Shown here: piece after piece, positions 32,980-35,844 of the stretch
Layout of the letters: each line of letters opens with the position of its first letter
Position numbering within the stretch: position 1 is the stretch's first letter
IMG/VR virus record: IMGVR_UViG_3300033463_000075
Span: 18,164-82,163 of that record
From: a virus
Taxonomy: Duplodnaviria; Caudoviricetes
Direction: 5' to 3' (one strand)
DNA: 64,000 nucleotides
Made by a program: the position numbers and the translations under genes
Notes under the pieces: generated by a model
The model's database searches: none
Told to the model about the DNA's origin: nothing
Seen by the model: the letters and a program-made list of their open reading frames with translations, nothing else

Positions 32980-35844
32980 CTAAAAGTATAAGTAGTAGTT
33001 TGATTTATGAGCATTGTGTGTTTCAACTCTTATAGCTGGTTTTGATATATGTGTTATATTTGATATAGGTGCTAATGGAATGCACTTTGACTGTGCAGTT
33101 ATTGTTGGCTTTTTGTGAATAATATTTTTAAGGTTTATAAGTGGAAGTTCAAAGCCGCATTCATGCATTAAACTAATAACAGATTTATTAATTTCAGCAT
33201 AGTACTCATCAATAATAGGTAAATCGCATCAATCTTGTAGATAAAATTTTGAAGCTATAAAAGGCATCTTAGTCTTTTCTCCTTGACCAGCTATATAGTG
33301 AATAACTTTTGGCCAGTTAGTTTTACGATTAGGGTTTACATATTTAAATTTAGGACCAGTAGTCATAAGGCCGTATGTATAGTCAAGGTGCAATTCATTT
33401 TTTTCTTGTCAATTATTAAAATAGTAGTTTAATACATTTTGATCATGTCATGCAATGTTGTCAGGTAATTTAGGAAGCAGCTTTAAAATTTTATTTGCAT
33501 CATTAGTATTTTTAAAATCTCAGACAAATAGTCCACTACAGAAGATAGAATCTCCAATAACATAAGGACCTGGCTTTCTATTTGGTAGTGGTGCACCATC
33601 AAGCACTGCACTCATATGCGGTTTATCAAAAAGCTCATCTATGTTTGAATAAATGCCCAAGTCAGAATCTAGATAAACCATTTTATCAAGTTTAAGCTGA
33701 TTCTTAAATAGGCCTAGCTTAGTAAAAGCTTTTACTCAATTTGATATTTTTTTAAGTGAAATACCATTTGGAATTATATTTTTTGTATCTAACTTAAAAG
33801 TAATTATGCCACAGGCATTTAAAATATCTATAGTATTTTGACTAACTTCATCAGTATAGCCGCAGCATACAGCATACTTTGTGCCATGTGTAAGAAGAGA
33901 CTTATATACATTTAATACATAATAAATATAATTATCAGAGCTCAAAAAAAGCATTCATGCCTTCTTATTATTAGCTTGCCAATTTAATTTGTTAGCGTTA
34001 ATAGTACTTAATGTTTTAGGTGTGCTATTTAAATTAGTAGATAAATAATTCATACTATTAGCAAGTAACTTAGAATAGCTAATATTAGGTGGATTAAGTA
34101 TCTCTTTAGTTAGTACAAAAGTGCTATTATTAATATTTCTATCAGCTATTTTAAACATTGACTCCAAAGATTCAAAGCGTATGTTTCCGTTGTCTCTATT
34201 GCTTCAGTATATAAAAGGTTTATTAAAAATAATAGCAAATAGCACACCATGGAATGAGTCAGTTATCACAAGTGAACAGTCTCTAAATGATGCTAGCCAG
34301 TCTATAACATCAGTTTTGTTGTGTTGGAATACTGACATATTTGTGTTTTTGCTTGTAGTGCTTATAAAACTATCTTTTTCTGATGTGGGCTGTAAAATAT
34401 ATTTAAATATGCTATTTGATTTCTTTTTGGGGATACCTTTACATAGTTCAAGATAGTCTGTTGCTGCTAAAAGCATTGTAGGGTCTAGCACTTGTGCAGC
34501 TTTTATACCAAAATGCTTTTGGCAGTCAGCTTTTGATATAGCTTCTCTTATAGACACGCCATTAAATTGTTGTAATAGACTAGCTAATTGCTTATCTTCC
34601 GTAGGTGTATATTGTCAGTTATCATTGCCTAAGCCAAAAGATGCTCCATATGAAAAGCGAACCTTATTTCAGCCAGCTGTAAAAGCTAAAAATGGATAGC
34701 TTATATAGTTATCCTTATAGTCATTAATACTTGTATTTTTTCTTCAGATTTGGTCGCTTCCAACTATAAAAATATCATAATCAGTAGCTTTTATAGTATT
34801 ATAATCTGCCGCTGTAGGCAAAATATTCATTTTTATATATTTGTCACAAAAGCTAAGTCTATCTGGTCTTCTTCATGTAATTATATCACAGTCATATCCA
34901 AGCTTATTAATTGTTTTTTGTAAAGCATATGCTTGCAATGCTGTGCCTATATTAAAGTGTAAATTCATAGTGACAACAGCTACTTTTTTATTAGCTTTTA
35001 ATAAGCTTTTATATGGCTCAGGTTGCACATTTAGCTTATCTTGAATACCTTTATTATAAGGCTGTATAGCAGCTATACTTGTTTCAGATAATGCTAAGCT
35101 ATTAATTTTAAATAGCAAGTCATTGCCAGAAGTTGTATTAGCTATTATAAAGCTAACACCCTTTTTGTCATCAATTGTTGGAAAACTTTTTTTAACACCT
35201 CAAAAATCGCCAATAGTTAAGTCTGAAGCTATATTAGTTTTAGCTTTACAGTTATAACAGCTACTATTAAAATACTTTGCAGATAGGTATGTTTTTGAGT
35301 AGCTATTATTTAAGTGATTTTCCTCTAGCCTACTACCGTCAGTGTATGTTACTACATAATTATAGTTATTTCAGTCTGTATTAGCTTTACTACGCATGTT
35401 GATACTGCTTATTGTAGCGTTCTTTTTAGAAATACTATTTAAATATTCTTTTCAAATAGAGACAGGTAAAGTGCCATAGCAAGCAATATTAATTGTTATT
35501 AGATTTGTATATGGTTTTTTTAAATAATATTTTAAAGCCATTATCTGACATGGTGTACCAGTATATAATACTAGTTTTCCTATATCTAAAAAATGTTTGC
35601 ATTCTTCAAATGTGTGTTTATTATCAGCTTTAACATATTTAGACCCCATTAATTTTGGTAAGTCAGCTAATTTATCTACGTAGCACATATCTACAAGCCA
35701 ATCTTTATTTCAAGCAGCTCCAAAAACAATACCATTATTTTGCAGTATATATTCTGCAATAGCATAAAAAACACCACCAGAAGAGCTCATTGTTCTGATT
35801 GCATCATTTTTATTTATAGCTAAATATGTCTTATCCTTTTCCAT
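32980..35844 (-). CDS. 954-aa fusion: FrhB/F420-dehydrogenase-beta-like + polysaccharide pyruvyltransferase + GT8 (15 TGA)
   Basis: One frame with no TAA/TAG until 32980; SSSGGVF, GTPCQ, CYNC, TIGDF[W]G; VGSDQI[W]R, VSIRE, ITDSFHG; VYLDSD, [W]HDQNVLN. Confidence 0.85.

Follow-up and report, generated by a model that had tools for sequence, protein, structure and literature searches.

The window analysed here is a stretch of 64,000 nucleotides from a virus of the Caudoviricetes (IMG/VR record IMGVR_UViG_3300033463_000075, positions 18,164 to 82,163). On its minus strand lies a gene in which an FrhB/FdhB-like fold, a polysaccharide pyruvyltransferase fold and a glycogenin-like GT8 fold follow one another within one frame. 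This gene, its parts and the neighbouring genes considered below are collected in Table 1.

Table 1. Coordinates of the fusion gene, its domains and its neighbours in the window
Feature	Position	Strand	Basis and remarks
Major head protein gene of T4 gp23 type, upstream border of the slot	46627..47946	-	phrog_138, PF07068, synteny
Whole fusion gene	32980..35844	-	954 codons and TAG; 15 TGA as Trp; collinear homologues P0002-P0005
FrhB/FdhB-like domain, residues 1-270	35035..35844	-	Pfam, alignment, Foldseek
Polysaccharide pyruvyltransferase domain, residues 286-610	34015..34989	-	PF04230, invariant columns, pLDDT 85-98
Inter-domain hinge, residues 611-627	33964..34014	-	AlphaFold model; two-domain relatives end about here, with a tail
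Glycogenin-like GT8 domain, residues 628-919	33088..33963	-	Pfam, phmmer, Foldseek, motifs
Junction TGA (Trp630)	33955..33957	-	Falls in beta strand 1 of the GT8 fold
Disordered C-terminal tail, residues 920-954, ending ...AHKSNYYLYF	32983..33087	-	pLDDT <50
Partner gene, GT-A-fold glycosyltransferase of unnamed family, 292 aa	32092..32970	-	Invariant DDD at 94-96; tail ...AHKTNYLYF
Standalone GT8 paralogue, 282 aa	31230..32078	-	8 TGA; without tail
Head-tail adaptor gene, downstream border of the slot	30372..31094	-	phrog_211, E 1.6e-7

Reading frame and TGA codons

Translated with table 4, the gene forms a single frame from the ATG at 35844 to the TAG at 32980 with no internal TAA or TAG, and every one of the 15 codons at which tables 4 and 11 differ is TGA. 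This bears out an earlier sequence-only reading of the region, in which the frame was said to be broken only by TGA. The tryptophans encoded in this way are W45, W131, W158, W215, W324, W367, W392, W410, W547, W630, W703, W775, W799, W812 and W872, of which W547 (34204-34206) and W630 are the two that the earlier reading had singled out. Only four tryptophans of the fusion are encoded by TGG, and the density of TGA is the highest in the window. At the local base composition TAA or TAG is expected at 0.064 per codon, and since the probability of meeting neither in 954 codons is about 2e-28, a chance open frame of this length is excluded. The other five frames of the same interval hold between 33 and 111 TAA or TAG codons each, and in 2000 shuffles the longest run free of both was 218 codons.

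Alignment with standard-code bacterial homologues was used to follow individual TGA sites. Tryptophan is present in all nine of these homologues at W158 and W215, in seven of the nine at W367 and in six at W131; at W45 the aligned residue is F or M. The gene was also read from the DNA of two related phage contigs (L001:8786-11611 and L002:9995-12823), and among the three phage genes TGA and TGG are exchanged at 7 of 19 homologous tryptophan sites. A reading of TGA as glycine (code 25) was rejected, as Gly occurs at no TGA site in any aligned homologue. The alignments indicate that TGA is decoded as tryptophan in this large uncultured gut or rumen phage. No tRNA, suppressors included, was found by ARAGORN either in the window or in the 82,163-bp contig, which is a genome fragment without a terminal repeat. 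In two blocks of the window, 43-3990 and 45061-50843, TGG is used and TGA is absent. Structural genes and lysis genes are the places where TGA builds up in known recoded gut phages (bioRxiv 10.1101/2021.08.26.457843).

The gene had also been described as hidden by its TGA codons. This is true of table 11, under which the frame falls into 16 pieces, but not of pipelines that use code 4, which catch it; the 954-aa protein is already present in a large protein collection. The gene illustrates the loss of annotation that occurs when recoded phages are read in the standard code.

The three domains and their relatives

Pfam placed FrhB_FdhB_N (PF04422) at residues 7-71 (24.8 bits against a cut-off of 22) and FrhB_FdhB_C (PF04432) at residues 91-248 (79.9 bits against 23.3), and a Foldseek search with this first domain recovered FdhB (7bkb_E, 7e-12) and FrhB (9r51_B, 2e-11), with further matches to 4ci0_C (1e-10) and HCAR (5dqr_B, 1e-9). 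Aligned with bacterial homologues, the fusion has four cysteines that never vary, Cys99, Cys122, Cys196 and Cys199, which may serve as [4Fe-4S] ligands. Against the NCBIfam equivalog for the true F420-reducing hydrogenase subunit beta (TIGR03289) the score was 15.7 bits, the cut-off being 331.5. On the evidence of these profiles domain 1 is a member of the FrhB/FdhB superfamily, with FrhB proper excluded. No ferredoxin-type domain was found in the fusion by Pfam; many bacterial homologues have one at their N-terminus, and the phage redox domain, being without it, might be inactive.

The second domain matched PS_pyruv_trans (PF04230) over residues 298-547 (E 5.5e-34, 118.8 bits against 25.3), a match that takes in positions 1-276 of the 280 in the profile. 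It carries the motifs GSDQIW (362-367) and ITDSFHG (527-533), and G362-S-D364, R433-E434, D454-P455, T528/S530/H532 and R556 are invariant in 10 sequences, which include standard-code bacteria. A PDB sequence search with this domain gave nothing at E values up to 1, NCBIfam yielded nothing over cut-off for the fusion, and neither the fusion nor the standalone GT8 has a family in PHROGs.

GT8 (PF01501) was not listed when the whole protein was scanned with Pfam, and the match to it (E 1.1e-9, 38.7 bits against a cut-off of 24.3) was seen only when residues 629-954 were scanned alone. The GT8 motifs, namely TKL (708-710), the DxD D726-S-D728, SG (770-771), HDQ (800-802) and His849, align one by one with those of glycogenin-1 (phmmer E 3e-7), and Foldseek matched the domain to glycogenin with an E value of 4.8e-15 and a target TM of 0.74-0.78. 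The AlphaFold model of the fusion has a pLDDT of 90 and a pTM of 0.67, which leaves the relative placement of the domains undefined, and residues 617-621 form the sole internal stretch of low confidence.

The fusion is conserved, with four collinear relatives (P0002-P0005) at 48-63% identity. Fusions of the first two domains alone number more than 2,000 database proteins and are common in bacteria, and in the bacterial contigs L010 and L013 the FrhB-like protein and the pyruvyltransferase are encoded by separate adjacent genes. In a quick tree of the fusion relatives, the third domain is missing from close relatives, and GT92 stands in the same position in a sister clade; the GT8 domain thus appears to be a labile add-on. 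These results agree with the sequence-only reading as to the order of the domains, the lack of an N-terminal ferredoxin and the neighbourhood of FrhB-like and pyruvyltransferase genes in bacteria. Its view that the fusion is unusual, however, applies only to the added GT8 and the phage setting, since the two-domain fusion is already widespread.

Megablast of positions 28000-40000 against GenBank phages gave no match. By tblastn the fusion protein matched 14 GenBank phage records, none with at least 80% query cover or reaching the GT8 part, and the best of these matches, with 25-28% identity in the first two domains, were to faecal 'Bacteriophage sp.' contigs that carry no annotation. Peptide-pattern scans of IMG/VR (protein and alignment) and of GTDB genomes yielded no confirmed relative.

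The glyco-enzyme slot and the shared tail

In five related loci, as in the window, the gp23-type head gene and the adaptor gene enclose genes for glyco-enzymes, and the adaptor gene follows these immediately in L002, L003, L019, L020 and L021. The order in L002 is major head gene (MCP), fusion, partner, adaptor; in L003, two-domain form, partner, adaptor; in L020, MCP, tailed GT8, adaptor; and in L019, a tailed pyruvyltransferase-GT92 fusion, a tailed partner, adaptor. Judged by this gene order, the major head and adaptor genes border a slot of variable glyco-enzyme content that houses the fusion and is newly recognised here. The partner gene adjoins the fusion or its two-domain form in L001, L002 and L003, and the fold neighbours of its product include TarP, a prophage-encoded teichoic-acid GlcNAc transferase. 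Some 3,000 contigs carry a gp23-type head protein of the window's kind. The major head protein of the window itself stops at the conserved core, without the variable C-terminal extension found in relatives, and no Ser/Thr-rich acceptor tag of the mycobacteriophage kind was found on the head or tube proteins of the window. The richest Ser/Thr run is that of a 1278-aa protein at 10356-14192.

The ...YLYF tail is common to unrelated enzymes of the slot, being found on the fusion, the neighbouring partner and their relatives. It ends 20 of 26 phage-type FrhB-pyruvyltransferase proteins against none of 94 bacterial-type ones, and it is present on 46 of 120 partner-family proteins and on none of 120 MCPs. 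A Lys-rich linker is followed by an aromatic end, with the strictly conserved consensus ADG[RK]xxx[YF]LYF, and the two tails of the window, those of the fusion and the partner, are identical at 12 of 21 residues, with partly different codons. The same three enzyme families bear a second type of tail, ...EEWWKE[DE][FY], in other contigs. The tyrosines of the tail were considered as acceptor sites in the style of glycogenin and set aside, as neither is invariant (variants FLYF, YLSF and YIGF). This pattern suggests that the tail common to these enzymes acts as an address peptide, which would draw the enzymes to one phage-lineage-specific partner.

Proposed role, alternatives and known systems

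In the explanation that we favour, to which as a whole we give a probability of about 0.6, the fusion would be one cytoplasmic protein of 954 residues, made only once TGA-to-Trp decoding is active, and hence late in infection. A short hinge would join three catalytic modules, these being an FrhB/FdhB-like Fe-S/flavin redox domain, a PEP-dependent polysaccharide pyruvyltransferase and a retaining, glycogenin-like GT8 sugar-nucleotide transferase. Together with the tailed adjacent GT-A transferase and the second GT8, the fusion would probably build a short oligosaccharide, which would then be capped by an acidic pyruvate-derived group. The redox domain may turn an enolpyruvyl intermediate into a lactyl ether by reduction, or process the pyruvyl group in some other way; the lactyl ether is suggested solely by the known chemistry of the family, and literature searches turned up no function for the FrhB-like protein that accompanies pyruvyltransferases. 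From the location of the slot between head and adaptor genes we infer that the tail serves as the address and that the acceptor is most likely a protein of the phage particle. The phage would probably use the fusion to build a charged sugar coat, virion glycosylation being our best guess as to the target, and the 'compact assembly line' for a modified glycan that the sequence-only reading had envisaged would be a reasonable description.

At the junction between the second and third domains the DNA reads AAG AAG GCA TGA ATG, so that a stop of the standard code abuts an ATG, and the apparent fusion could be a stop-start overlap of two genes, in which a stop at the junction TGA releases a two-domain enzyme of 629 residues and a restart at Met631 produces a free GT8. 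This ATG is preceded at 5 nt by a weak SD-like AAGG, SD-like motifs are present at 83% of gene starts in the window against about 10% of internal ATGs, and the relatives include both two-domain forms and standalone GT8 genes. The AAGG, however, is merely part of the Lys-Lys-Ala codons, and 14 further TGA codons lie inside the three folds, several of them at invariant Trp, so that none of the domains would be made without efficient TGA readthrough. The fused and standalone GT8 share 48% identity over 209 residues and both open with A-W(TGA)-M, a parallel that had been drawn earlier and that is upheld here. In P0004 and P0005 the junction Trp is followed directly by Leu instead of the Met needed, which excludes a restart at this point in those two proteins. 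Trp630, encoded by TGA in all three phage genes (window, L001 and L002), is the conserved aromatic of GT8 strand 1, and the real standalone relatives, which start M-x(2-5)-A-[W/Y]-hydrophobic, have two to six residues ahead of it. A product ending at residue 629 would moreover be tail-less, whereas every natural two-domain form has a tail. Split products are therefore hardly credible, and the gene is best read as encoding one polypeptide that carries three folds.

Such a single polypeptide could still act on a glycan of the host envelope, for which a lipid-linked repeat unit, wall teichoic acid, a secondary cell-wall polymer and capsule are candidates; the surface would be re-decorated, for example to block superinfection or to keep progeny off debris, and the tail would direct the enzyme to the membrane or to a host protein. 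Characterised PF04230 enzymes, as far as known, all act on cell-envelope or secreted glycans, examples being CsaB, WcaK, WcfO, ExoV and GumL (review PMC6801904). The bacterial homologues come from polysaccharide loci in which both genes are adjacent, the likeness of the partner to TarP points in the same direction, and the Lys-rich linker with its aromatic end could bind membrane. The slot, however, holds no flippase, polymerase or priming phosphoglycosyl transferase, and its genes, placed amid head and neck genes and the richest in TGA in the window, are probably late, which would leave little time for remodelling. The strict consensus of the tail and the lineage-linked second tail type also favour a protein partner over a lipid, and we consider a host acceptor unlikely. 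A role in the glycosylation of phage DNA, as a base hypermodification against restriction, would accord with the frequent action of phage glycosyltransferases on DNA (summary in PMC12619734), and a Pfam match to the TET-associated glycosyltransferase family, below threshold, was obtained with one relative of the partner (E 0.0014, 19.1 bits against 27.5). In contrast, the slot is without a hydroxymethylase, TET/JBP or base-modifying gene, and its TGA-rich genes stand in the head operon, whereas replication-linked genes of this genome avoid TGA. We know of no GT8, GT92, Stealth or pyruvyltransferase domain that acts as a DNA modifier, and DNA is a very unlikely acceptor.

The favoured explanation, a late enzyme that glycosylates the virion, can be extended to a broader and more doubtful scheme, which we put forward tentatively. 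A large group of T4-like TGA-recoded gut and rumen phages may possess, between the head and the neck genes, a swappable set of glycan enzymes, comprising the redox domain and pyruvyltransferase pair, GT8, GT92, Stealth and the unnamed GT-A, each with an interchangeable address tail, and may use it to give their virions an acidic glycan coat. The tails ...ADGRxxxYLYF or ...EEWWKEDF would dock to a receptor that is specific to the phage lineage and sits on the particle under assembly, and domains could be freely fused, split or exchanged and still reach the same target. The coat would be pyruvylated or lactyl-ether-bearing, and we know of no phage particle with an acidic glycan coat of either kind.

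If true, the proposal would represent a chemically distinct case of phage self-glycosylation, with an acidic pyruvate-derived cap, occurring in abundant uncultured gut and rumen phages; to our knowledge, self-glycosylation has so far been shown only for mycobacteriophages. The charge of such a coat could bear on host range, on binding to mucus and on recognition by the immune system, and a simple targeting code is suggested by the tail that unrelated enzymes have in common. The redox domain and the pyruvyltransferase are paired, either fused or as neighbours, across thousands of bacterial loci, and since the fusion ties both enzymes in one chain, this widespread and unexplained bacterial pairing could be tested directly on one soluble protein.

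The bacterial FrhB-like/pyruvyltransferase proteins (PF04432 and PF04230) have the same two domains in the same order at 32-36% identity to the phage form, and the four cysteines and the pyruvyltransferase motifs are invariant in both. The ferredoxin domain that many of them carry N-terminally is of the 2x[4Fe-4S] type and is lacking in the phage form, which in turn has the added GT8, the ...YLYF tail, a place in a head operon and TGA for Trp. Glycogenin (CAZy GT8; PDB 1LL2, 3U2T and others) is the best solved match to domain 3 in both sequence and fold. While its TKL, DxD, SG, DQ and His motifs align with the phage GT8, the two share only some 22% identity, the phage GT8 does not retain the loop with the self-glucosylated Tyr and, unlike glycogenin, the phage domain sits fused behind two other enzymes.

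The window is also like the recoded gut and rumen phages of the Jade, Agate and Sapphire clades, whose genomes are large and whose structural and late genes, unlike those for replication, accumulate TGA, and for which no glycosylation module was reported (bioRxiv 10.1101/2021.08.26.457843). In the mycobacteriophages Che8, Corndog and Myrna, glycosyltransferases are found among the structural genes and a glycan coat has been proposed (Freeman et al. 2023, via PMC12619734). The location in the structural block is shared with the window, whereas the enzyme families differ. Those phages glycosylate the C-terminal ends of capsid and tail-tube subunits, in contrast to the untagged head and tube proteins of the window, and that source describes neither pyruvylation nor a redox domain, and no triple fusion or address tails on enzymes.

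A further parallel is offered by A064R of chlorovirus PBCV-1, a three-domain capsid-glycan enzyme with two rhamnosyltransferases and a methyltransferase. This enzyme differs from the fusion in belonging to a eukaryotic virus and in being built of other domains, and the likeness lies in the way of working, namely that one viral polypeptide unites several activities that build or modify a glycan for the virus's own capsid.

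Reading frame and decoding of TGA in the fusion

The sequence-only reading had proposed a single 954-aa frame hidden by 15 TGA codons, and translation bore this out. Under table 4 the frame was open for 954 codons to a TAG end, while under table 11 it was interrupted by 15 TGA codons. At this base composition, 0.064 TAA/TAG would be expected per codon, and a run of 954 codons without either would arise by chance with P of about 2e-28. In the other five frames 33-111 TAA/TAG were counted, and the longest open run in shuffles (n=2000) was 218 codons. Long ORFs in the window all lie on the minus strand, tightly packed, and many require TGA as a sense codon.

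The TGA sites of the fusion were aligned with nine homologues from bacteria, taken from large contigs that use the standard code. Sites 158 and 215 faced tryptophan in all nine, site 367 in seven and site 131 in six (Phe in the other three), while site 45 faced Phe or Met; Gly was found opposite none of the sites in this alignment. Read from DNA, the fusion genes of the related metagenome loci L001 and L002 hold 15 and 17 TGA codons, respectively. Among the window, L001 and L002, 7 of the 19 homologous Trp positions have TGA in some and TGG in others. These comparisons show that TGA in the fusion is tryptophan. The fusion gene is the densest in TGA in the window (15 TGA versus 4 TGG), and the gene blocks 43-3990 and 45061-50843 use TGG and no TGA. 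This is the same pattern as in described recoded gut phages, where genes for structure and lysis are enriched in TGA (bioRxiv 10.1101/2021.08.26.457843). A search of the 82,163-bp contig, which is a fragment and has no terminal repeats, found no suppressor tRNA.

An AGGAG-type Shine-Dalgarno (SD) motif precedes 45 of the 54 gene starts in the window; of the in-frame ATGs inside genes, 32 of 306 (about 10%) have one. This contrast points to an SD-using host of the Firmicutes/Bacilli type rather than Bacteroidota. P0387, a database protein of the family of the 292-aa partner encoded next to the fusion, carries the NCBI label 'Bacilli bacterium' MAG.

At the junction before the GT8 domain the codons are AAG AAG GCA TGA ATG, and an SD-like AAGG stands 5 nt upstream of this ATG. 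Given the contrast between gene starts and internal ATGs, a stop-start pair, in which TGA ends a two-domain product and the adjacent ATG restarts GT8, was worth testing. However, the 14 further TGAs fall within the three folds, so that a functional product requires efficient TGA decoding. The fusion relatives P0004 and P0005 have Leu instead of Met after the junction Trp, and standalone GT8 relatives start M-x(2-5)-A-[W/Y]-hydrophobic, a pattern which marks Trp630 as the conserved aromatic in strand 1 of GT8 and the junction Met as one of several hydrophobics permitted after it. Moreover, every natural two-domain form ends in a tail peptide, which a product stopped at 629 would lack. A stop-start pair is thus highly improbable. 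The single polypeptide is conserved in relatives, a point that the sequence-only reading had raised: it is collinear in P0002 and P0003 (62% identity over 99% of length) and in P0004 and P0005 (48-49% identity), and its occurrence in independent assemblies shows that it is not an assembly artefact.

Domain architecture and the third domain

Pfam placed FrhB_FdhB_N at residues 7-71, FrhB_FdhB_C at 91-248 and PS_pyruv_trans at 298-547 (E 5.5e-34), and a GT8 match above cut-off (E 1.1e-9) was obtained when the last 326 residues were scanned alone, in agreement with the domain order proposed earlier. The claimed lack of an N-terminal ferredoxin also held, as Pfam found no such domain in the fusion, in contrast to many of its bacterial homologues. 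The AlphaFold model (58-row alignment) had a mean pLDDT of 90.1, with low values only at 617-621, the hinge before GT8, and at 920-954, the C-terminal tail; its pTM of 0.67 leaves the mutual placement of the domains undefined. By Foldseek, the first domain matched FdhB, FrhB and 7-hydroxymethyl chlorophyll a reductase (E 7e-12 to 1e-9) and the third matched glycogenin (E 4.8e-15, TM 0.74-0.78), whose motifs TKL, D726-x-D728, SG, DQ and His849 align in the fusion GT8. Bacterial homologues share Cys 99, 122, 196 and 199 and the pyruvyltransferase residues without exception. The structural reading of the fusion is supported: one gene of late type codes for three catalytic folds, all intact-looking, and a tail, beside two more glycosyltransferases.

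The two-domain FrhB-like/pyruvyltransferase fusion is common (>2,000 proteins at E <=0.001), and in the bacterial contigs L010 and L013 the two are separate adjacent genes, as had been stated for bacteria. The suggestion that a phage fusion with GT8 is unusual stood: the triple fusion is absent from PHROG families and GenBank phage records. P0006 and P0007, 58-60% identical to the fusion, have no domain beyond the pyruvyltransferase; in P0024 and P0026 GT92 stands in place of GT8 (precomputed Pfam), and P0025 (970 aa), of similar sequence, groups with them without a recorded GT92 match. In a quick maximum-likelihood tree, phage-type proteins formed one clade (SH-aLRT 98), within which GT8 fusions occurred at two places and the two-domain P0006 and P0007 branched from within the group of P0001/2/3 (supports 100 and 99), indicating that the GT8 domain was gained or lost more than once. 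The third domain is the variable part of the fusion.

The standalone GT8 encoded downstream (31230-32078) shares 48% identity with the GT8 domain of the fusion, and P0131 and P0140 carry the same GT8 subfamily fused to Stealth domains. Among relatives of this GT8 domain, the joined parts are the CR2 and CR4 regions of Stealth, a hexose-1-phosphate transferase; P0131 has a YLYF tail, P0140 a modified WW-type tail, and P0036 Stealth CR2 and no recognisable tail. These Stealth-joined GT8s are more fusions from the same enzyme pool.

The head-operon slot and the shared tail

Genes around the fusion were named by PHROGs and Pfam. The partner family comprises >150 database clusters without a Pfam name; modelling gave the partner a GT-A fold whose neighbours are EXTL2, ppGalNAc-T2 and TarP, and its DDD motif is invariant. 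The standalone GT8 starts 13 nt after the partner stop without an SD-like motif, has TGA as its fourth codon (8 TGA in 282 codons) and lacks the YLYF tail present on the standalone GT8s of L020 and L021.

Features of the window, genes in transcription order, and of related loci
Feature	Coordinates	Strand	Remark
Terminase large subunit	52842-54893	minus	weak match, phrog_2, E 8e-6
Portal	50864-52813	minus
Head maturation protease	47985-49820	minus
gp23-type major head protein	46627-47946	minus	PF07068
HNH endonuclease	45061-46500	minus
LRR gene array	35857-44909	minus
Fusion	32980-35844	minus
Fusion tail	32983-33000
292-aa partner	32092-32970	minus
Partner tail	32095-32121
Standalone GT8	31230-32078	minus
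Head-tail adaptor	30372-31094	minus
Tail sheath	22987-24495	minus
Tail tube	22359-22967	minus
1278-aa protein	10356-14192
L001 fusion; partner	8786-11611; 11659-12444
L002 fusion; partner	9995-12823; 12833-13621
L001 head-gene pieces	1050-1310; 2553-3005; 3520-4053		three, separate
L001 HNH genes	4114-5382; 5406-6839	opposite to head pieces
L002 head protein	8500-9873
L020 head protein	963-2342

In related contigs the slot between head and adaptor genes had constant borders and changing content: head protein, fusion, partner and adaptor in L002 (273-kb contig); fusion, partner, an LRR gene with others, and adaptor in L001; a two-domain form, partner and adaptor in L003; head protein, GT8 and adaptor in L020; GT8 and adaptor in L021; and pyruvyltransferase-GT92, partner and adaptor in L019. 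The fusion is thus one state of a variable glyco-enzyme slot that a large group of T4-like phages has between head and neck genes. The head protein had about 3,000 database matches at E <=1e-20, the best 120 listed being at least 79% identical. In L001 the head gene is split and two HNH endonuclease genes come after it, an arrangement suggestive of introns or of inserted homing endonucleases; in the window the head gene is intact, with one HNH gene right behind it.

The C-terminus of the fusion is ...AHKSNYYLYF and that of the non-homologous partner ...AHKTNYLYF, with 12 of the last 21 residues in common and codons partly different; the corresponding end in L001 and L002 is ...ADG[RQ]xxx[YF]LYF on both enzymes. 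A [YF]L[YF]F end was found on 20/26 phage-type and 0/94 bacterial-type FrhB-pyruvyltransferases, 46/120 partner-family proteins, 3/149 GT8 matches and 0/120 head proteins. Tails of the ...ADG[RK]xxx[YF]LYF type occur on FrhB-pyruvyltransferase, unnamed GT-A, GT8, GT8-Stealth and pyruvyltransferase-GT92 proteins, including those of L019, L020 and L021, and a second type, ...FTGLxEEWWKE[DE][FY], on members of the three enzyme families counted above, in other contigs; both are absent from bacterial homologues. In every readable locus the tail-bearing ORFs were only the glyco-enzymes of the slot, and the tail is disordered in both the fusion and partner models. Tail type tracks the contig and not the enzyme family, as would be expected of a docking or address peptide, and the tail may be such a tag for a lineage-specific receptor.

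Proposed function and acceptor

GT8 enzymes are retaining transferases that take a hexose from a UDP-sugar, PF04230 enzymes use PEP to place its pyruvyl group on sugar hydroxyls, and FrhB-family proteins catalyse flavin/Fe-S-dependent reductions; in chlorophyll enzymes the groups reduced include vinyl and hydroxymethyl. The module would build a short glycan and then a pyruvate-derived acid cap, the redox domain possibly reducing an enolpyruvyl ether to a lactyl ether; no published test of a redox partner role with pyruvyltransferases was found in the literature. As a proposal, this functional reading is plausible.

A phage particle protein is the favoured acceptor, at a probability of roughly 0.45-0.5, given the head-operon position, the late-type coding, the lack of flippase, polymerase or priming genes and the putative, specific address peptide; modification of host envelope glycans seems unlikely, and that of DNA more doubtful still. 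Against the simplest capsid model, the variable C-terminal extension with Tyr that L001, L002, L020 and many relatives have is missing from the window head protein. Head proteins (window, L001 (3520-4053), L002, L020 and P0390-P0509) are conserved up to ...LLVAGKI, after which many relatives add a hypervariable extension of 6-25 residues, usually with Tyr (...NTYATV..., ...DEYNKI..., ...TTYGV...). No Ser/Thr tag was found on the window head or tube proteins. The richest Ser/Thr stretch in the window, K-Y-TTTTT-DSDG-TTT-S, lies near residue 675 of the 1278-aa protein, which had no PHROG family match at E <=1e-5.

The component families and TGA recoding are already known. What is new is their arrangement, in which an exchangeable third transferase is set on a common redox-pyruvyltransferase pair, in a head-operon slot and with a shared, putative address tail.
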